Part shown: piece by piece, positions 275 through 60,690 of the stretch
Numbering within the stretch: position 1 is the first letter of the stretch
Layout of the letters: every line of letters begins with the position of its first letter
Assembly: GCF_022539665.2 (NCBI RefSeq)
Contig: NC_081333.1
Coordinates: 186,001 to 250,000, forward strand
Source of the DNA: Daphnia carinata
Lineage: Eukaryota
DNA length: 64,000 bases
Direction of reading: 5' to 3'
Position numbers and translations under genes: made by a program
Notes under the pieces: generated by a model
What the model was told of the DNA's origin: nothing
The model's input: only the letters and a program-made list of their open reading frames with translations
Databases searched by the model: none

Positions 275-3200
275 ATAGCCTTCTCACTTTTGTTAAAATC
301 AGCAAAACATAAAATCTCATGAAATTGCATTAAACTCCACCAAAATAACCGGTATTGAACGCTGATTCAGAATATAGCATTAGTTTTTCGATTAGTGGTG
401 CGGTTTGTGAATAAAACGCAATTAAAGTGATTTTTGTTTGTTTATCGTCGCGGGCACCATCTATTAGCGGAAGTATGATCAAAATAAGCTTCGATGCTGG
501 AAATGTCAATAAAACTGGGATAAGTAACAAACTATAAGTCGCACATAATAAACATATTGGTTTTCATGATCCTCATTAAATTCTCAATCACAACCATGTA
601 TTTAAAAGAATTTCTAAATTTTCGACAAAACTGAAAAAGTAGGAAGGCTATAGCCTTCTCACTTTTGTTAAAATCAGCAAAACATAAAATCTCATGAAAT
701 TGGATTAAACTCCACAAAAAATAACCGGCATTGAACGCTGATTCAGAATATAGCATTAGTTTTTCGATTAGTGGTGTGGTTTCTGAATGAAACGCAATTA
801 AAGTGATTTTTGTTTGTTTACCGTCGCGGGCACCATCTATTAGCGGAAGTATGATCAAAATAAGCTTCGATGCTGGAAATGTCAATAAAACTGGGATAAG
901 TAACAAACTATAAGTCGAACATAATAACAATATTGGTTTTCATGATCCTCATTAAATTCTCAATCAAAACCAGGTATTTAAAAGGATTTATAAATTTTTG
1001 CCAAAACTGAAAAAGTAGGAAGGCTATAGCCTTCTCACTTTTGTTAAAATCAGCAAAACATAAAATCTCATGAAATTGGATTAAACTCCACAAAAAATAA
1101 CCGGCATTGAACGCTGATTCAGAATATAGCATTAGTTTTTCGATTAGTGGTGTGGTTTCTGAATGAAACGCAATTAAAGTGATTTTTGTTTGTTTACCGT
1201 CGCGGGCACCATCTATTAGCGGAAGTATGATCAAAATAAGCTTCGATGCTGGAAATGTCAATAAAACTGGGATAAGTAACAAACTATAAGTCGAACATAA
1301 TAACAATATTGGTTTTCATGATCCTCATTAAATTCTCAATCAAAACCAGGTATTTAAAAGGATTTCTAAATTTTTGCCAAAACTGAAAAAGTAGGAAGGC
1401 TATAGCCTTCTCACTTTTGTTAAAATCAGCAAAACATAAAATCTCATGAAATTGGATTAAACTCCACCAAAAATAACCGGCATTGAACGCTGATTCAGAA
1501 TATAGCATTAGTTTTTCGATTAGTGGTGCGGTTTGTGAATAAAACGCAATTAAAGGGATTTTTGTTTGTTTACCGCCGCCACCGCCATCTATTCGCGGAA
1601 ATATGATACTTATAAGCTGCGATGCTGAAAATGTCAATAAAACTGGGATAAGTAACAAACTATAAGTCGCACATAATAACAATATTGGTTTTCATGATCC
1701 TCATTAAATTCTCAATCAAAACCAGGTATTTAAAAGGATTTCTAAATTTTTGCAAAAACTGAAAAAGTAGGAAGGCTATAGCCTTCTCACTTTTGTTAAA
1801 ATCAGCAAAACATAAAATCTCATGAAATTGGATTAAACTCCACAAAAAAATAACCGGCATTGAACGCTGATTCAGAATATAGCATTAGTTTTTCGATTAG
1901 TGGTGTGGTTTCTGAATAAAACGCAATTAAAGTGATTTTTATTTGTTTACCGTCGCGGGCACCATCTATTAGCGGAAGTATGATCAAAATAAGCTTCGAT
2001 GCTGGAAATGTCAATAAAACTGGGATAAGTAACAAACTATAAGTCGAACATAATAACAATATTGGTTTTCATGATCCTCATTAAATTCTCAATCAAAACC
2101 AGGTATTTAAAAGGATTTCTAAATTTTTGCCAAAACTGAAAAAGTAGGAAGGCTATAGCCTTCTCACTTTTGTTAAAATCAGCAAAACATAAAATCTCAT
2201 GAAATTGGATTAAACTCCACAAAAAATAACCGGCATTGAACGCTGATTCAGAATATAGCATTAGTTTTTCGATTAGTGGTGTGGTTTCTGAATAAAACGC
2301 AATTAAAGTGATTTTTATTTGTTTACCGTCGCGGGCACCATCTATTAGCGGAAGTATGATCAAAATAAGCTTCGATGCTGGAAATGTCAATAAAACTGGG
2401 ATAAGTAACAAACTATAAGTCGCACATAATAAAAATATTGGTTTTTATGATCCTCATTAAATTATCAATCAAAACCAGGTATTTAAAAGGATTTCTAAAT
2501 TTTCGCCAAAACTGAAAAAGTAGGAAAGCTATAGCCTTCTCAAATTTGTAAAAATCAGCAAAACATAAAATTTCATGAAATTGGATTAAACTCCACAAGA
2601 AATAACCGGCATTGAACGCTGATTCAGAATATAGCATTAGTTTTTCGATTAGTGGTGTAGTTTCTGAATAAAACGCAATTAAAGTGATTTTTGTTTGTTT
2701 ACCGTCGCCGGCACCATCTATTAGCGGAAGTATGATACTTATAAGCTGCGATGCTGGAAATGTCAATAAAACTGGGATAAGTAACAAGCTATAAGTCGCA
2801 CATAATAACAATATTGGTTTTCATGATCCTCATTAAATTATCAATCAAAACCAGGTATTTAAAAGGATTTCTAAATTTTCGCCAAAACTGAAAAAGTAGG
2901 AAGGCTATAGCCTTCTCAAATTTGTAAAAATCAGCAAAACATAAAATCTCATGAAATTGGATTAAACTCCACAAGAAATAACCGGCATTGAACGCTGATT
3001 CAGAATATAGCATTAGTTTTTCGATTAGTGGTGTAGTTTCTGAATAAAACGCAATTAAAGTGATTTTTGTTTGTCTACCGTCGCCGGCACCATCTATTAG
3101 CGGAAGTATGATACTTATAAGCTGCGATGCTGGAAATGTCAATAAAACTGGGATAAGTAACAAACTATAAGTCGCATATAATAACAATATTGGTTTTCAT

Positions 3201-3675
3201 GATTCTCATTAAATTCTCAATCACAACCATGTATTTAAAAGAATTTCTAAATTTTCGACAAAACTGAAAAAGTAGGAAAGCTATAGCCTTCTCACTTTTG
3301 TTAAAATCAGCAAAACATAAAATCTCATGAAATTGGATTAAACTCCACCAAAAATAACCGGCATTGAACGCTGATTCAGAATATAGCATTAGTTTTTCGA
3401 TTAGTGGTGCGGTTTCTGAATGAAACGCAATTAAAGTGATTTTTTTTGTTTACCGTCGCGGGCACCATCTATTAGCGGAAGTATGATCAAAATAAGCTTC
3501 GATGCTGGAAATGTCAATAAAACTGGGATAAGTAACAAACTATAAGTCGCACATAATAACAATATTGGTTTTCATGATCCTCATTGAATTCTGATTGAAA
3601 AACCATGTATTTTAATGGATTTCTAAATTTTCGCCAAAACTGAAAAAGTAGGAAGGCTATTGCCTTCTCACTTTT
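275..3675. repeat. Tandem satellite, ~9 copies of a 376-bp unit
   Basis: The string ATTGGTTTTCATGATCCTCATTAAATT recurs every 376-377 bp. Each unit contains the near-palindrome GAAGGCTATAGCCTTC. The ORF track shows the same translation repeating at that period. Confidence 0.97.
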
Positions 3676-20465: not shown

Positions 20466-21368
20466 TTAAAGAATATGATGACCGTGGCCGTGATTGCCAT
20501 GCCCGTGCCCACCAACACCGTGTCCGCCTGTTCCATGACTTCCAGTTCCACCGTGTCCGTGAGTTACGTGCCCTGTGGATGTTGCCCCGTGAATGTGCCC
20601 ACCAGTTCCATGTCCCCCAATTCCAGCGTGTCCGTAACCACCTCCGTGCCCAGCTGATCCTGTTCCGTGAACGTGGCTGCTAGTTCCGTGGCTTCCAGTT
20701 CCACCGTGTCCATGACCGGTGCCATGACCAGTCGATCCTGTTCCGTGGACGTGAGTGCCAGCTCCGTGCCCACCTGATCCGTAGCCATGTGTTCCTTGTC
20801 CGTGTCCACTACTTGCGTGAATGCCAGTCCCTAATGATCCTAATCCATGTCCGTGTCCTCCACTTAGCCCATGTCCATGTCCGCCTGAGCTTTGGCCGTG
20901 CCCGTGTCCGCCGTAGCTGCCGTGACCACCGTGGTGTGCGCCATGATGGCTGCCGTAACCGGGATAACCACCGTAGAAACCCCCGACAGGCCTGTGGCCA
21001 TGATGGCCATAACTTCCCAAACCAGCCGCATAAAGAGGTGAATAGCCTGGCACTTGTCCATCGGAAAAATGAAAGATTAACACCGCAAGGCCATCGACGT
21101 GCTAACCACTAGATCGCCTTACCGTAACCAGGAATACCACTCTGCCCAGTGAGGACACCTTGCAATAACGCGCCCAGCAATTGCGGCTGACGTTTGATAC
21201 GTGCCCCGTTCTCCGCAACATTCGCTGATAACGTCATTAACGGCAATGTTAATGCAATAAGGAAACCAAACTAAAAAAAAATGGTCTGTTATTTTCTGAA
21301 ATCTGAGCTGATAAAAAAGAGAACATCGTCAGTTGAGAACTTACCATCATACAAAGAGGGCCGTTCAT
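20466..21368 (-). CDS. Secreted Gly/His/Thr-rich protein, at least 3 exons
   Basis: MNGPLCMM|FGFLIALTLPLMTLSANVAENGA-RIKR-QPQLLGALLQGVLTG...|long GHG/HGTG repeat exon. CATATAAA at ~21460. Confidence 0.88.
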
Positions 21369-38729: not shown

Positions 38730-40162
38730 TTATTGCTGTTGGTTGGTGAAATCAATTTCGCCACCACTGGCTGGACTGGAATCGGCGGAAGGAGCAGAGG
38801 CTTCGACGGAAGCCGCATCAGCGACCGCAGTGCCGTTGGACTTTTGTCCTTCACGCCATCCTAGGTAATTGCTGCCGTAACCACTTTCTGCAGCCAATTT
38901 TCGAAATGAGCAAATAAAAGACATCGTTAATAACAGAGTCACATCAGTGAAAAAATACATGTTTTCATTTGATTAATTGCACGTGAAAAAGGGAATCGCA
39001 TGGAGGACGTGTTGCAATTTTGTGTTTTACATACCAACGCTAAGGCTGTTGTATCCTGAGTGCCCATACGCGACTTGTTGTCCGCCGCCAACATTGTTTC
39101 CATACAGTCCCGTATTGTAGCCAGTGTTTCCGTAGCCGGTGTTCGTGCCGTAGCCGCTATGGCCTCCGTATCCAGTATTGATTCCAGTGTTTGTGCCGTA
39201 CCCAGTATTTGTTGCATATCCAGTGTTGCTTCCGTATCCAATGTTTGTTCCATAGCCGGTATTGGTTCCATAACCTGCGTTCGATCCGTATCCCGTGTTT
39301 ATTCCGGATCCCGTACCGTAGCCGGTGCTGCCGAAGCCAGTGTTGCTGAAGCCTGTGTTGCCGTAGCCAGTGTTGCTGGAGCCAGTGTTGCCGTAGCCGG
39401 TGTTGCCGAAGCCGGTGTTGTCGAAGCCAGTGTTGCTGGAGCCGGTGTTGCCGTAGCCCGTGTTGCCGTAACCGCTCTGACCGTAGTTGATGTTTTGGCC
39501 GTATCCGGCATTGACTCCTGGAGTTTGGTAACCACTTCCGCCATATCCTGATACAAACGCGATAGGAATACCAATCAATTATTTAATAATTTCCCTTTAT
39601 AATTTCTTCAATCATTCCCAAGAGTTAAATAATGAATGATTAAAGAAAAACTCATTACCACCAGCAGCGTTGTTGGCATGGTGCCCAGTGTTTTGATGGC
39701 CAAGCTGTTGGTGAGTGGTAAGACTGCTACTTTGCTGTTGATGGCTGCTGCTCTGTTGTTGGTAAACTGTACTGCTCTGTAATTGACCTATCCGCCAAAA
39801 CAATGGTTTGTTTTAAAATAAAATTCAATTATTTCAAAATGAATTGGATTCTCTCATTACTTGTTTGGTGACCGTAATTGGGACGATAACGCTCGTCAAC
39901 CTTTTCACCTTCAGCCAATTCGCCTACAGGTGCCACAGCATGCAGCACCTCCGGTGATACAACGATGGGAGCCTCATCTTCCGGGTACGGCATGGCAACG
40001 GCCAACGCCAACATCAATAACTATCGATACAACATGTTGGAATGAAACTCAAACCTTTCAAGATTTCCACGATAAACGTGAGACATTTTAAATCACAAAT
40101 GAAATTTGAAAACAAAGAAAAATTCTGTGAAAATGACTTACCGTAAACACGAAGCGAAACAT
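38730..40162 (-). CDS. Secreted protein with [10 protein letters not shown] repeats, 5 exons
   Basis: [23 protein letters not shown]...|Q/S/H-rich exon|(NTGYG)n exon|ESGYGSNY...QQQ*. TATAAAT at ~40261. Confidence 0.88.
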
Positions 40163-49200: not shown

Positions 49201-49467
49201 CTTAATCTTGCGGGACTTTTTGATTTGTGGCACTGATGGATTTGCAAAGTTTAATTTCAAGGAAGATAATGGTATTAGCTTTCTATCTTAAGTTGTTTGT
49301 GAGCAGAATAATAGCCATTTTACTGTAAACCCGGATCGTCTGATTGAATAAACAAGAAGAGAAATGAGTGAAAAGAAATGTTTATTTATGTATCGAGGAC
49401 AAAACCTGCGACAGAGTAATTTTGTCACACCGAAGTGGATTAATCGAATGGTTACAAAAAACTCACC

Positions 49468-50502
49468 TTACATTCGGTAGAGTATCACATTGGTACGAAT
49501 CTCTTGCACAAATTTCAGTGAGTCATCGATGACATTTCTGACATCTCGAATTTTGTTCGCAGCGGCATTTTCGTTCATGTCATCAAGCAGATATATCCAC
49601 GACTTTAGATATACTTTCCAGTTTCGGGTAACTTGTGTGAACTTCCCGTGGCAAGTGGCATTTCTGCCTTCCATAGCGTCCTTCAGTATTAGCGCGGTAG
49701 ACCTTTGAGAATGACCTGTTCCGAAATAGTTCTTGTAATTTTTTTGCTCTTGTATTATGAGCTTCAAATTGGCGAACACGTCAATGTCAATTGACGTTCC
49801 TTTTTGTTTTGTACGTACCAAAAAGTTTCGAAGAGCAGGGCCTAGATGTCTTAGTAGGCAACTGTACAAAACGAGGCTTAGGCCGAATGCGGCGTTTTGA
49901 TCGTAGGTGCCACTATTACATGAAAACTTCTTATCATCGACAGCGTGTTTGTAATGACCGCTCATGAGGCGACTGTAAACAGCCTCTATGTCGGTGGCAC
50001 TGCATTCGTCTCCAACAATTCGGCAAAGTTTTACCAAAGCTTCAAAATGGGTTATCCAGTTTGTCTTTAATGCCTGGAGATTTAAATGGCATGTTTCATT
50101 TCTTGCATAGACAACGTTGCGGATCTCCACGCAGGATAGAGAAGAAACAAGAAAATGCCCGTTGTTGTTGTAGTTCATTAAGGTCTCCATTACGTCCGCA
50201 CAGTCGTAATTAATGGCCATCGGTGAAAGGATACGTTGTCGGCACAAGAACCGCCGCGCAGCCGGAGTGGCGTAGTAGGTCAAACAATAGAATAAGACCT
50301 CAGCTACGTATATGATGTTGTCATCACCCACTTGGGGTGAAACAGGCGGTCGTGCTACGGTCTGGGCTGTAGTCGCGCTTTTGGTCTCTTCTTCGGGTAT
50401 TTCAGTACGGAAAGTTCTTGTAATATTTCGAACTGGATGAATGTTTATTTTTACCATCTTGGATTCTTGTGAAAAACTCGTCAAGAGGCAAATAAATAAC
50501 AT
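49468..50502 (-). CDS. Protein with two tandem HEPN-like (Swt1-like) domains, candidate RNase; likely start at ATG 50457
   Basis: Uninterrupted 344-codon ORF with a ~146-aa internal duplication. Each repeat carries an R-x4-H motif: RNETCH (50086-50103) and RNATCH (49648-49665). Confidence 0.75.
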   Translation of the reverse strand: MLFICLLTSFSQESKMVKINIHPVRNITRTFRTEIPEEETKSATTAQTVARPPVSPQVGDDNIIYVAEVLFYCLTYYATPAARRFLCRQRILSPMAINYDCADVMETLMNYNNNGHFLVSSLSCVEIRNVVYARNETCHLNLQALKTNWITHFEALVKLCRIVGDECSATDIEAVYSRLMSGHYKHAVDDKKFSCNSGTYDQNAAFGLSLVLYSCLLRHLGPALRNFLVRTKQKGTSIDIDVFANLKLIIQEQKNYKNYFGTGHSQRSTALILKDAMEGRNATCHGKFTQVTRNWKVYLKSWIYLLDDMNENAAANKIRDVRNVIDDSLKFVQEIRTNVILYRM

Positions 50503-55823: not shown

Positions 55824-56610
55824 TTATTGTCGTTCATTGACTGCAGAATTTGCGCCTTCATAGGAAGACGAATCCGAAGATGAACGATAAGGCCGCTGTT
55901 GGCTGCCGTAGCCGTACGGATTGAAAGCACCCTGACCGTACAGACTCTGTTGATTGTAGAGGCCGTATTGTCCGTAAGGGCTTTGTTGGCCGTACTGGCC
56001 GTAGAGTCCACTCTGCTGGCCGTAAAGACTCGCAGGAAAACCTCCTACAGAACCGAAACCTGCACCACCCAAACCTGGATAACTTCCAACTCCGTAACTA
56101 GGATATCCACCAGCCCCGTAAAGAGATCCACCACCGAATCCTTGCTGGCCATAACCGGCGCTGCCGAGAGCTCCTGGATAGGAGGCACCGAATCCACCCA
56201 GTCCAGCACCGCCGAACTGTTGCTGTCCGAAGCCTGGATAGCCAGTGACAGCCTGTTGGCCGTAAAGACTCTGCTGGTTGTAACCGATCGCTGCTTGGCT
56301 GCCGTAAAGCGATCCGGAAGAATAAGGTGAACTCAATCCACCGTAAGATGGAAATGCGGATGCCCCTCCGAATCCTCCTAGTCCCGTGCCGAAACCACTG
56401 CCACCTAAAATGCTTCCGAATCCGCCCAAAAGATTCCTCCCCGCAGGCTGTTGGTCACTACCAGCTGCTGACGGTTCCTCCGCTGACGCTGTGCTCCAAC
56501 ACACCGCCACAATCACCTAAATAAAACAAAGAAAATCGTTTAAAACTTTGGGTTTTTATGATTTATGATTAGATTTTCAATACCAAAATCCATCGAGTGA
56601 CGTATAACAT
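55824..56610 (-). CDS. Secreted Gly/Tyr/Gln-rich protein, 2 exons
   Basis: MLYVTRWIL|VIVAVCWSTASA...PAGR-NLLGGFGSILGG...(YGQQ) repeats. TATAAAA at ~56766. Confidence 0.9.
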
Positions 56611-58475
56611 GTTGGATGTCTTTTAGTTTATCTTTCGCACTGAAACTGTGTCACCTGGACGCACTTGTGTTCGGAAACGTAATGGGAGAAATCGAGCGTG
56701 TAACTGCGGGAGAAAGCTCGAAGATAGAACTCGACTGGTTCATCTATGCTGGTCGACAGACGAGGTTTTATACCTGGCAGTTTGTATACCTGGCGGAGGC
56801 ATCCTGCATTTCTTGTGCTTACACACATGTCCTTCGATTTTCGTTCGTGTGTGCATAATGTGCTCGCTCCCTCATGACTACAATATCGATAGCTCCCCTT
56901 TGTGCAAGAACAGTGTCTGTAAAGATTTACGTAATAACAACAACGACGTGGATACAACATCTTTGTGATTCTTCCACCTTCACCTTGAACCAAAAATGAA
57001 ATGACCGGTACTTTATTCTTTGGAGGAAGTCGTATTTTTTAATATTACAATCAAATAAATGAGAAATTCTGTGAACTGGAAGCAAAAGAATACAACAAAC
57101 TAGACAAAGGTCGGAATTGCGCACCGCACGCGATTGCGACTGTAAGTCAAACATATTCGAGATTTGACTTTCTAAAGGAAAGCTCTTTGATAGTTTTCGA
57201 AAAAGATCAGACTCCCTTTTTCAGGCGTCTGCAAAGGTGAAAGGACATTCAGGTGATCCATAGGAGAAAGTTAGGCTTAAAGAATTCGTTTTCCGTACCT
57301 GCCGTATGCAAATAAATGTTGAGTATAGGGTGGGTTCGCAAATGGGTTCCACAAGATGCTGTCAAAGACCTTGACCACATTTTTGAACGGATGTTCTATC
57401 ATCCACGTCATCAAATGTGCAAAGACATTAAGAAACACGCAACTTGATAGAATAATAATGGCGTTTAACGTTTCGCTCATTTGTTTGTGGAACGCAGCGG
57501 ATATGGGCGAGTTCCCGTCGTGACATTTAGCCTAAACACAATGTCATTATAAAAGCCAGTAGACCTTTGACTTTTTCGATTTCATTTCGCAAAAAAAAAA
57601 AAATGCCCTTATCGTTTGAAAAGACGAGCTTTCGGGAAAGCCAACGACCTCGCTCATAATGCGCAACGGGGAGCGTTCCCTCACAACATTTTGCTAATGA
57701 AAGCGATGACGATCTGTAGGTGAAATTAGTATGGAGGTTCCGAGACACAGATCGGGGTTAACGACAGCAGCTTTCTATTTATTCTGCACGTTGCAATATA
57801 CATGAAGTATAGCAAACGAGGAGAAAGTAGTCTCATATAGAGACAGACGCATGCTCTGTAACTCTCCTAGATATTTTCTATACAAAACTTAGAATTATTA
57901 CATCATCGAACGTTGGGGCGGCTTTAGTTTTAACCTGATATGAATTAACGTGCAAGAAGCACATCTTTTAATTCAAATATCTCAAAAACTATGAATCCCA
58001 CGTCAAAATGCAATGGATTTTTGTGATCCTTGTTGAATTTTGAATGAAATACGTAGCTTGCATGGTTCGCTAAAGTATTTTTAAGTTTTAGAACAAATTA
58101 AAATAAGCACGACTTTTTAAGCCCGACTTTTTAGTTAATTACAGTAAGGCCTTTTTGGATCAAAAATAAGGCTAAAATGTGGAATTGTTGGGAGGTAGAG
58201 TGCCATCAAATGCAGTGCAGGATCTCCATAGGCGTTTTGTAGGGACAAACGGCATTCCATATCATTGTGGCTTAGAAATAATACATCAAGATATACCGTT
58301 TGTTTTTCTTTTTTGTATATTTTCATTAGTATAAAATCAAGTGCGGTCTTACAAAAATAAGAAGGGCACGACGCTATCCGGGCTTTATCTTAAAGGTTAC
58401 GAAAAAGAGCAACAGCATTTTTTTTTACGTCAATTCATTTATAAATACAGATGGAAGACTGATGGTCCAAAGGGT

Positions 58476-59073
58476 TTAACCATAGTACGGCCTGTAAGAA
58501 CCAATCATGAATAAACGTTAATTTCTTTTCGTCATCGATAATTCGCTTATGTTTGCAATGTAATACTAACCCGCCGTAGCCGTAAGGTGCATAACCACCA
58601 TAGCCACCATAAGGATAAGACTGATAGCCATAGCCGCCGTAGCCACTGTAAGGCGCATATCCGCTGTATCCATAAAACGGAGGGTATCCTCCATATCTAT
58701 CACAAAAGAAAAAAAAAAGAAGTGCATCGTTTATGTGGACCTTTGATTCCTAGTGCAAATGCTAAGCATTGACAGTTCATATACGTACGTACCCATAATT
58801 AGCGGGATAGCCGTAAGCAGCTCCACCAATCAAACTTCCTAGAAGCCCTCCCAAATGTCTTCCTTGGGCTTCACCGCCACCTTCGGATCTCCCTGCTGCT
58901 CCTTGCTGTCCTTCATCGCAAGAAACGCCATTCCAAATAGCCGCCAACATCATCTTGAATTCAAAAACCCCGCGCCAAAATTTCAAAGAAAAAATAAGTT
59001 AGTGAGGAACTCAATGAATTGTTTTCATTTTTTTTACCAGCAAAACAGCGAAGAAAACAAACTGATTCTTCAT
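58476..59073 (-). CDS. Secreted Gly/Tyr-rich prepro-peptide, 4 exons
   Basis: MKNQFVFFAVLL|MMLAAIWNGVSC...AQGR-HLGGLLGSLIGGAAYG|YGGYPP...|PYYG*. TATAAAA at ~59186. Confidence 0.9.
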
Positions 59074-60690
59074 TTCTTTCCTTTTGATTCGTTCACAAAG
59101 AAAACGAGTCCAGGCCTCTACTGTTCACTTCTGTTCGTGTCGGAGTCGGAGAATGAATGCCGAGGGACCGCCAACAACAACACCGTTTTATACGCATCAA
59201 TAAGGTGCTAGTGTCCCAGGTGCGTGAGTGGCCTATGCGACCTTGAAGCGCACTGTCTGAACGCCGGTTACAACAATAAAAAGAAAACAAAAAAGATGCT
59301 GGTTGTAGCATAATGGGAAATGGTTAGCGTTTCTTCGAGAACGAAATGGATCTACCTTCACCTTGAACTCAATTCCTTTAGACAACTTCAACTAGGCGTA
59401 GATTTCTGTAGACTACGGCGGAAGTCTCGGTTTTTTATAACACGCTCGTATTAAAATCATGTTTTGATTAACAATGACAAGTCCTTTTTGTCATACGTTT
59501 AGCATAAAAGAAACGATTTTATCTAACATGAGATGTTTAAAGATTTTCTTTTAGACTCGTCACGCGATGAAATCATCACGAGGAAAGTTTTGCTGAACTG
59601 CTCACGAATGAAGTCATCCTCGCCAATTTCTTTTTTGTTTTTAGACATATGAAAAACCACGCCCCATTTCGTTCTTTATCACCTCCCAATAATTTTGCAA
59701 TTCTATTTTTTCTGTGTGTTTTTCATGGCGATATGCCCAATCAAGGACAGTAAAAAAAAAGACGCGTGATGTTGCGCTTCTGCTGTCACGGTATCAGGAC
59801 ATGCAAGCCGATGGTAGGAGAACCATGGCCTACATGTGAACCTTGCGACGGAATACAAAAGGGTGATACTTATCTAGGAAAACCCCAACAGGGTATAACA
59901 TAATCATGGGATATACAAATCCTTGTCTTTGTGTGGTTGAGAAGGAATAATGCACTGCATCACCACGCCTTGAGGACATCGGATGTCTGGGCTTCCTGCC
60001 TGCCGAAATTGAAGGCCACTTTAATATTAAATAGCACTAATTTTAAGTTTTGATAAACATCAATGAATCGGTCTACTGAATCGCAACGTTTAGTGCAATT
60101 CAACTGAATCCAAAATGAACTTTTTTCGCATAGACAATCGTGCTCCAATTTCTCTCTTACCGGCATGAATGTTCACTCTCACTATCACATTGTTTTTTTT
60201 TTACGTAACAATGCTGACGCATGATTTCTTTTTTTTTAATCCTAGAAGAGGTCGGCCAACACCACAACTCAAACTAGATCGTAAGAACTAAAAACAGCTG
60301 TCTCCCGCATTGCAGGTTTTAAATCAAACAAAAAACAAGTGTATGCATAACGAGATGGATTGAGAACGCAGCTTGAATCGATGATGGCTGTTTATTTTCT
60401 TATTCCTTTCTTTACGTGCTATTTTTTGGGAACGAGTGAGAAAATAAGACAATGATAACACATGTGGGTCATAGTGTACAATATATAGAAACTATATAGA
60501 AATTGAGGCGTGGTAAATTTCTGCGGCGCTTTAAAAATGCGAAATTGTTCAGTCATTATATCAGGTTTGAGTGGAACAATTGTTTCTTAATGACCATCAG
60601 GTGTAAAAAAAAAACGTTGCTAACGTTTTTCACTGCAGTCGTAAATAAATACATAAATCGGCAAACGATGTCGACTTGTGGGCACAAGTT

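Follow-up and report, generated by a model that had tools for sequence, protein, structure and literature searches.

What is encoded by the long, unbroken open reading frame (ORF) at positions 49468..50502, minus strand, of a 64,000-nucleotide stretch of the Daphnia carinata genome (NC_081333.1, positions 186,001 to 250,000; hereafter the window), and what could its product do? HEPN ribonucleases (RNases) are central to bacterial immunity, and RNase L and Ire1 represent them in animals. An earlier reading of the same DNA, here called the original prediction, had proposed a single-chain protein with two HEPN domains. Our analysis favours, at somewhat better than even chances, an intact single-exon gene whose product would carry two tandem HEPN domains arranged as an intramolecular pseudo-dimer with one composite ribonuclease site. 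Of the parts of this reading, the tandem HEPN fold is highly probable, RNase activity is favoured on balance, and a role in defence is tentative and falls a little short of an even chance. Most likely, the locus encodes a cytoplasmic endoribonuclease that stands alone, carries its HEPN domains in tandem and forms its composite site within one chain, as one member of a lineage-specific crustacean expansion.

The ORF lies on the minus strand, and every peptide stretch that the original prediction quoted from it was found in the translation. The internal duplication described there is beyond chance: residues 61–200 and 201–344 align locally with a score of 88, a value reached by 0/1000 shuffles (mean 28.0, standard deviation (SD) 4.9, maximum 52), and the MAFFT identity between the halves is 28%. 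The spacing of the two motifs was likewise reproduced: 146 residues separate the start of RNETCH (residue 134) from that of RNATCH (residue 280). A third Rx4H string in the protein, RLMSGH at residue 178, is not part of the conserved column. The parts of the protein map to the window as follows (residues counted from the first ATG; pLDDT, predicted local distance difference test).

50326..50457, minus strand: N-terminal low-confidence, probably disordered region, residues 16–59, judged from pLDDT and from length and sequence that vary among relatives
49939..50325, minus strand: HEPN-like domain 1, residues 60–188, with helices 60–88, 101–111, 124–138, 142–162 and 166–180, from the model and structural matches
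50203..50205, minus strand: conserved Asp100 at the start of helix 2 of domain 1, from column conservation; in the predicted interface
50086..50103, minus strand: Rx4H motif 1, RNETCH, residues 134–139, at the end of helix 3 of domain 1
49513..49902, minus strand: HEPN-like domain 2, residues 201–330, with helices 202–230, 242–255, 266–284, 288–308 and 312–330, from the model
49780..49782, minus strand: conserved Asp241 at the start of helix 2 of domain 2, in predicted contact with His139
49648..49665, minus strand: Rx4H motif 2, RNATCH, residues 280–285, at the end of helix 3 of domain 2

In a tree of domain copies from the family, first and second domains mostly separate (7 label changes versus 23 in shuffles), and because of this separation the duplication is, as judged from the tree, mainly old. 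Exceptions are the two copies of relative P0020, which are supported sisters, and those of P0060, which pair at lower support (Shimodaira–Hasegawa-like approximate likelihood-ratio test (SH-aLRT) 91).

The predicted fold brings the two halves under one description. AlphaFold2 run on an alignment of relatives (A2) returned a mean pLDDT of 85.9 and a predicted template modelling score (pTM) of 0.81, against a pLDDT of 34.9 in the single-sequence run; confidence is low at the N-terminus (pLDDT <50 for residues 1–30, ~53–55 for residues 31–50). Each half of the model consists of five helices, in which the Rx4H motif closes helix 3 and runs into the loop to helix 4, D100 and D241 open helix 2, and residues 112–123 and 256–265 form the loops between helices 2 and 3. 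The HEPN layout set out in section 7 of PMC3710099 (Anantharaman et al. 2013) has a core of four helices: the second carries a conserved acidic residue near the motif, an insert separates it from the third, and the Rx4-6H motif spans the junction where core helix 3 ends and the loop to helix 4 begins. Each half is predicted to have the layout given in that section.

The AlphaFold2 model was then used in an unbiased VIA-align structure search of 48,161 solved chains, from which the following matches are relevant (Z, similarity score of the search; rmsd, root-mean-square deviation).

Rank 1, 1wwp_B, HEPN protein: Z 8.2, rmsd 2.1 Å, 96/119 residues aligned, on domain 1
Rank 2, 5xwp_A, LbuCas13a: Z 8.0, 234 residues aligned, model residues 59–336, covering both domains
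Rank 7, 9fcv_A, titled 'Cas nuclease-crRNA complex' (crRNA, CRISPR RNA), Cas13 not named: Z 7.1, 198 aligned
Rank 13, 7vti_A, Cas13bt3: Z 6.7, 200 aligned
Rank 18, 8h4u_A, titled 'riboendonuclease', Cas13 not named: Z 6.4, 213 aligned
Rank 19, 7os0_C, Cas13a: Z 6.4, 188 aligned
Rank 22, 4pqz_A, yeast Swt1 C-terminal domain: Z 6.1, 118/136 aligned, on domain 1
Rank 30, 8vz6_B, AbiF: Z 5.8, 117 aligned, on domain 1

The top-ranking structure, 1wwp, is cited as a HEPN protein in the relevant part of PMC3710099. Within the top 20, exactly five rows exceed 180 aligned residues, and three of these five are named Cas13. We read the weight of this search, which concerns a predicted model, as lying in ranks, coverage and the recurrence of one superfamily. 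In a second structural comparison against the PDB, the best match was AVAST5 (Z 5.6, 59 residues), with AbiA at Z 4.0, values that are modest for helical proteins.

Do the two halves pair? Given to ESMFold2 as separate chains and without alignments, they reached a median interface score (ipSAE, interaction prediction score from aligned errors) of 0.70 (runs 0.77, 0.70 and 0.70), against 0.01 for the best control; the mark applied to this predictor is reached by 51/78 solved complexes and 2/108 mismatched pairs. At least 61% of contacts agree between runs, and the partner pLDDT is at least 78. The predicted interface is pseudo-symmetric and involves helix 1 (64–79/207–221), the Asp loop (97–102/239–244) and the end of the motif (138–143/284–289), with cross-half contacts 138–284, 139–241 and 140–241, that is, including Cys138–Cys284 and His139–Asp241. 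The two motifs are thus predicted to meet, as they do in HEPN dimers and in Cas13. Three expectations of the original prediction bear on these models: a HEPN fold in structure searches appeared as the top two of the 48,161 chains (a HEPN protein and Cas13a), with none from Foldseek at E ≤0.001; the two R-x4-H motifs, proposed to face each other, are predicted by ESMFold2 to touch across the pseudo-symmetric interface; and a self-contained pseudo-dimer without a sensor domain agrees with the predicted intrachain pairing, no further domain attached to the two HEPN-like units having been found in Pfam scans and the relatives' alignment.

Relatives were collected by an exhaustive phmmer search of 1.84 billion representatives, each hit standing for a cluster at 50% identity. 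There were 77 relatives at E ≤1e-3 (E, expectation value), 36 at ≤1e-10 and 7 at ≤1e-30, the best of which (E 6e-65, 42% identity) covers residues 27–324. Among 30 of the 77 clusters looked up, 8 carry organism names, all of them Daphnia (pulex, magna and sinensis); the remaining 22 are Logan, ENA or JGI records without an organism name, many of them full-length ORFs of 311–365 amino acids (aa) on short contigs, from ORF-based callers. Because many relatives are single full-length ORFs called on short contigs, the records suggest that the family is generally intronless. Word-indexed homology searches (near lengths, longer proteins and a two-row repeat profile) found nothing. A MAFFT alignment of all 78 members (A3; the 77 relatives plus the D. 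carinata protein) was too mixed for use, and A2 served for modelling.

Conservation centres on the residues expected of a HEPN site. R280 and H285 are invariant in a 36-row alignment (36/36), in which D100, R134, N135, H139 and D241 are at least 90% conserved, and across 70 aligned domain copies the commonest residue of each column accounts for 100% (H), 97% (R), 96% (D), 71% (N) and 73% (W), the conserved Trp column lying ten residues past the motif His. A domain hidden Markov model (HMM) built from these 70 copies and scanned over the 78 proteins recognised two domains in 46/78, one in 27/78 and fragments only in 5/78. Both R and H are present in both domains of 35/46 two-domain proteins, only in the second domain of 9/46 (the first-domain Arg lost and the His kept in 8, the domain truncated in 1) and only in the first domain of 2/46, in both of which the second domain is truncated; all single-domain proteins (27/27) keep the pair. 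Conservation of R and H in homologues, a point on which the original prediction had staked its claim, is therefore seen in both halves.

These counts bear directly on the strongest alternative, which keeps the tandem HEPN fold and takes away RNA cutting: the protein would be an RNA-binding sensor, adaptor or regulator, on the model of proposals for Swt1's inactive dyad and for inactive nematode HEPN expansions. PMC3710099, in its passages on these families, regards the 'dyad of HEPN domains' in Swt1 as probably inactive and devoted to RNA sensing, and suggests that inactive expansions act as receptors; loss of the first-domain Arg in 8/46 two-domain relatives also indicates that the full two-site chemistry is not always required. 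However, R, N, H and Asp are kept in both domains of the protein studied here, no domain copy that spans the His column lacks this residue, and the retention of both R and H pairs in 35/46 is the pattern expected for catalysis; the Daphnia version is, moreover, called catalytically active in the same part of PMC3710099. We consider a non-cutting protein decidedly unlikely and retain the tandem-HEPN endoribonuclease as the preferred reading.

Two further features of the family were observed. The residue before the catalytic His is most commonly Cys (55/119 copies), and the residues at the two pre-His positions, which are predicted to touch, co-vary in pairs that include Cys/Cys (13), Asp/Ala, Asp/Arg, Asn/Arg and His/Arg. 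Cys occurs in both motifs in 13 proteins, in neither in 18 and in one of the two in 12 (Fisher p 0.006), an association confounded by relatedness and to be taken as a hint only. Separately, P0007 (538 aa) and P0008 (461 aa) have a long N-terminal extension that opens with a hydrophobic Cys-rich segment, which suggests that some tandem-HEPN proteins are anchored in a membrane or secreted.

The setting of the gene raises the question of its origin. Its neighbours are TPH-domain, TLC/TRAM and otopetrin genes; the TPH-domain gene lies directly upstream on the same strand and is made of ORF pieces of ~230–390 bp, next to which the HEPN-like gene is one unbroken ORF, as had been noted earlier in describing one long exon in an intron-dense genome. 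This contrast is the first ground for regarding the gene as a selfish or recently acquired element, a toxin-type gene that arrived by horizontal transfer or retroposition and is kept by propagating itself and not by host defence. Relatives that are single full-length ORFs on metagenome contigs point the same way, as do the size and fast evolution of the family (77 clusters at 50% identity) and the lateral transfer from bacteria that PMC3710099, where it treats the Daphnia version of the domain, infers for it. Against such an origin, no terminal inverted or direct repeats were found flanking the gene, no second copy was found within the 64-kb window (tblastn and domain HMM), and no transposase-like neighbour appeared among the ORFs scanned there; a bacterial or archaeal relative was likewise absent from the pattern scan of genome contigs, repeat-profile pattern scans of metagenome and prokaryote genome contigs confirmed no relative, and all named phmmer relatives are Daphnia. 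The mobile or horizontal origin raised by the original prediction is thus not borne out at this locus, where neither a bacterial relative nor flanking terminal repeats were seen, and we regard a selfish element as quite improbable. One candidate second copy, at 59963–60172 and 60272–60391 (minus strand), was rejected, its scores being at chance level (tblastn E 0.38 and 3.1; domain HMM E 0.24 and 8.4). As an observation, 59963–60391 (minus strand) holds two short ORF fragments that match domain 2 in collinear order and could be a decayed relative or nothing.

Sequence profiles give HEPN evidence that is weak but consistent. Sub-threshold Pfam HEPN matches occur in 4/78 members, each spanning that member's RNxxxH (HEPN_Swt1, E 0.01 and 0.033; HEPN_RiboL-PSP, E 0.032; HEPN_Cthe2314, E 0.11). 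The best HEPN_Swt1 (PF18731) scores among relatives are 16.5 and 14.9 bits (P0025 and P0030) versus a gathering threshold of 27.5 bits; PF18731 has no match in the D. carinata protein, which by profile is not a member of that family. PADLOC RTasHEPN matches residues 253–287 weakly (E 0.04), and a National Center for Biotechnology Information family (NCBIfam) scan of the protein returned chance-level rows only. Among the nearest Atlas clusters, all Pfam families shown are HEPN_DZIP3, HEPN_Swt1 or DUF4559, at scores of 0.85–0.90 that are leads only, and one 90%-identity cluster mate of P0008 is named in UniRef as an 'Apea-like HEPN domain-containing protein'. The DZIP3-like family, put forward earlier as a candidate, fared poorly: with PF18738, neither the whole protein nor the separate halves gave a match at E ≤10, and the 77 relatives gave none.

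Several results weigh against a tandem-HEPN endoribonuclease. Pfam searches of the whole protein and its halves at E ≤10 returned nothing except a spurious DUF4344 match, none of the 77 relatives has a Pfam HEPN match at E ≤0.01 or reaches a curated threshold, and PDB sequence searches with the protein and with alignments A1 and A2 gave chance-level rows only. On the structural side, Foldseek found no match for the whole model in the PDB or BFVD at E ≤0.001, the best VIA-align Z of 8.2 is modest and, by the tool's own note, helical bundles may match through common arrangement, and many other rows of that search are unrelated helical hairpins of ~70 residues. Fold and pairing are both predicted models, the proximity of the motifs is read from contacts and not from Arg–Arg distances, and the ESMFold2 pairing score may in part stem from solved HEPN dimers that the predictor has memorised. 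A pre-assembled HEPN site without a sensor should, in addition, be toxic, and no control mechanism is visible; the gene stands alone among housekeeping-type genes, outside any immune cluster; and its identity with the Daphnia family described in 2013 rests on organism names and weak Swt1 matches.

Could the protein, then, not be a HEPN protein at all? It might be an unrelated duplicated helical bundle that keeps RNxxxH for another purpose, for example metal or ligand binding through Cys and His; the lack of any curated HEPN profile at threshold, the modest Z scores for a helical protein and the prevalence of Cys before His would fit. This is very improbable given the recurrence of one superfamily in the structure search, where the top two chains are HEPN proteins and the five long matches (three named Cas13), Swt1 and AbiF all fall in the top 30. 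The motif position, conserved Asp and insert position also fit the HEPN description in section 7 of PMC3710099, and all four sub-threshold HEPN matches cover the motif. A tandem-HEPN protein remains the reading that we carry forward.

The coding status of the ORF was examined with a codon log-odds model trained on adjacent Pfam-confirmed exons. Its own frame scores −0.001, the other five frames −0.18 to −0.26, and intergenic stretches, in their best frame, −0.24 ± 0.03; the ORF thus looks coding-like in its own frame only. The two closest relatives begin 'MV' at the position that matches M16–V17, and their C-terminal ends lie within a few residues of the stop of the HEPN-like gene. Since these relatives start there, and since the sequence around the ATG at 50457 (TCCAAGATGG) is more favourable than that at 50502 (TTTATAATGT), translation probably starts at 50457 and yields a product of 329 aa. 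The gene model is as follows.

49468..50502, minus strand: whole ORF, first ATG at 50502 and stop TAA at 49470–49468, 344 aa plus stop
49468..50457, minus strand: probable true coding sequence, a single exon from M16, 329 aa plus stop, judged from the relatives' ends and ATG context
49381..49386, minus strand: AATAAA, candidate polyadenylation signal, 82–87 nt past the stop, read from the sequence, with its function presumed

An unexpressed relic or chance-preserved ORF without present function, which a lone copy between unrelated genes might suggest, is hardly credible for a full-length, intact frame that has all conserved family residues, ends that match its closest relatives and coding-like codon usage confined to its own frame. 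At 49455–49473 (minus strand), the stop of the gene sits inside ATGTAAGGTGAGT, together with two consensus-like 5′ splice donors. One of them (GTAAG, overlapping the stop) would skip the stop and is probably unused, because the relatives end at the same place. A downstream exon joined through this GTAAG donor was considered and rejected: the protein end coincides with that of the closest relatives, and the downstream ORFs have no Pfam match.

How, then, would such a protein work? The two tandem HEPN domains would pack as an intramolecular pseudo-dimer, and their two conserved Rx4H motifs would build one composite ribonuclease site. The product would be a metal-independent endoribonuclease whose site assembles without a partner or guide; in a protein that lacks a sensor domain, control would come from its expression, from the choice of substrate or from an inhibitor. 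The gene would be the only representative in the window of Daphnia's lineage-specific expansion of Swt1/Ava_2192-type HEPN domains, and it may, in line with the published proposal on that expansion, protect the host from RNA of viruses or transposons. In the papers found, the large invertebrate HEPN expansions are only catalogued and discussed by prediction. Being small and self-contained, with an active site predicted within one chain, this family, which lacks a Pfam model, would make an easy first target for finding out what such expansions do; its alignment and model also offer a handle for annotating roughly 80 clusters now listed as 'hypothetical protein'.

Elsewhere in the window, other features were observed. 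A satellite with a 376-bp unit occupies 275–3675 (9.0 copies, 95% identity) and has a 135-aa stop-free minus-strand frame in nearly every unit; the one unit scanned (535–939) has no Pfam match. Long Gly/Tyr/Ser/His-rich low-complexity ORFs lie at 20466–21101, 39027–39578, 55824–56516 and 58435–58749 (all minus strand) and, by composition, resemble structural proteins of the cuticle or matrix-like type; the only one scanned (55827–56516) has no Pfam match. Two paralogous acidic, Gln-rich ORFs of ~300 aa at 26305–27195 and 29120–30133 (minus strand) share conserved blocks, have no significant Pfam match, and may be a small unannotated gene family beside the Gly/Tyr-rich genes. Tandemly duplicated exons with nearly identical protein sequence are found at 34092–34532 and 36380–36820 (minus strand), the first of which (the only copy scanned) has a weak, below-threshold sulfotransferase-domain match (E 9e-4).

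Among known systems, the nearest is the Daphnia expansion itself. A literature search on Daphnia HEPN proteins found PMC3710099 as the only relevant paper and no experimental study. In the part that deals with these families, that survey reports a Swt1-family HEPN domain expanded to 46 copies in Daphnia and called catalytically active, terms eukaryotic Ava_2192-type versions 'solos', and predicts such expansions to be defensive endoribonucleases. The family described here is probably this expansion of Swt1/Ava_2192-type domains: its members are stand-alone, with no fused domain and an intact Rx4H in a large divergent family; all relatives with an organism name are proteins of Daphnia pulex, magna or sinensis; and weak HEPN_Swt1 matches in two members go with a superposition of the model on the HEPN domain of yeast Swt1. 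It differs in that the survey, in its passages on the 'solos', makes no mention of two-domain proteins with both motifs intact. The kind of family that the original prediction called uncharacterised was therefore in print by 2013, as that part of the survey shows. The prediction read the structure correctly, to judge from the models, and overrated the novelty; because the survey predicted both this kind of enzyme and its presence in Daphnia, our finding refines existing knowledge and does not overturn it.

Swt1, known from yeast and animals, likewise has two HEPN domains in the C-terminal part of one chain, according to the table in PMC3710099, and domain 1 superposes on 4pqz_A. However, Swt1 combines an N-terminal PIN nuclease with a HEPN part described as inactive through motif loss, whereas the protein described here has no PIN domain and keeps both motifs. 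The mollusc and cnidarian DZIP3/hRUL138-like expansions, as presented in the relevant part of PMC9646362, are likewise animal HEPN families that have expanded, bear a motif of the RNxxxH type and are presumed to act against viruses, and families of this kind are among the nearest Atlas clusters; unlike the D. carinata protein, which is not a member, their proteins are described there as usually fused to NACHT, Death or TPR domains. Abi2, AbiF and AbiD belong to the same Abi2/Swt1 branch in the classification of PMC3710099, as far as that section covers it, and AbiF matches domain 1, but these are bacterial proteins that form homodimers bound to non-coding RNA, and the sequence searches made found no sequence-level link to them.

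The closest parallel in architecture is Cas13, in which, as the passage on its nuclease site in PMC12165695 states, HEPN1 and HEPN2 dimerise intramolecularly to form the site. The likeness consists of two HEPN units in one chain and of structural matches of 188–234 residues that run across both domains of the model, three of them to chains named Cas13 and two to chains with uninformative titles. Cas13, in contrast, is two to three times larger or more, has crRNA-binding lobes and assembles its site only on target binding, whereas the HEPN-like protein, at 329–344 aa, has no room for a guide-binding lobe and is encoded at an animal locus without CRISPR context. Its two HEPN-like domains and probably disordered N-terminus fill the 344-aa chain and the gene has housekeeping-type neighbours, which leaves it without a Cas13 lobe or a CRISPR array. 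A bolder possibility, which we consider unlikely, is that an animal has a guide-free, sensor-free miniature counterpart of the Cas13 core, a chain of ~330 residues with two active HEPN halves permanently paired, represented by dozens of divergent intronless paralogues that would serve branchiopod crustaceans as an RNA-targeting arsenal; the paired pre-His residues (Cys138/Cys284 here, Asp/Arg or Asp/Ala elsewhere) could then be a redox or specificity switch. The likeness to Cas13 is one of the way of working, as predicted from the model, and not of family membership.

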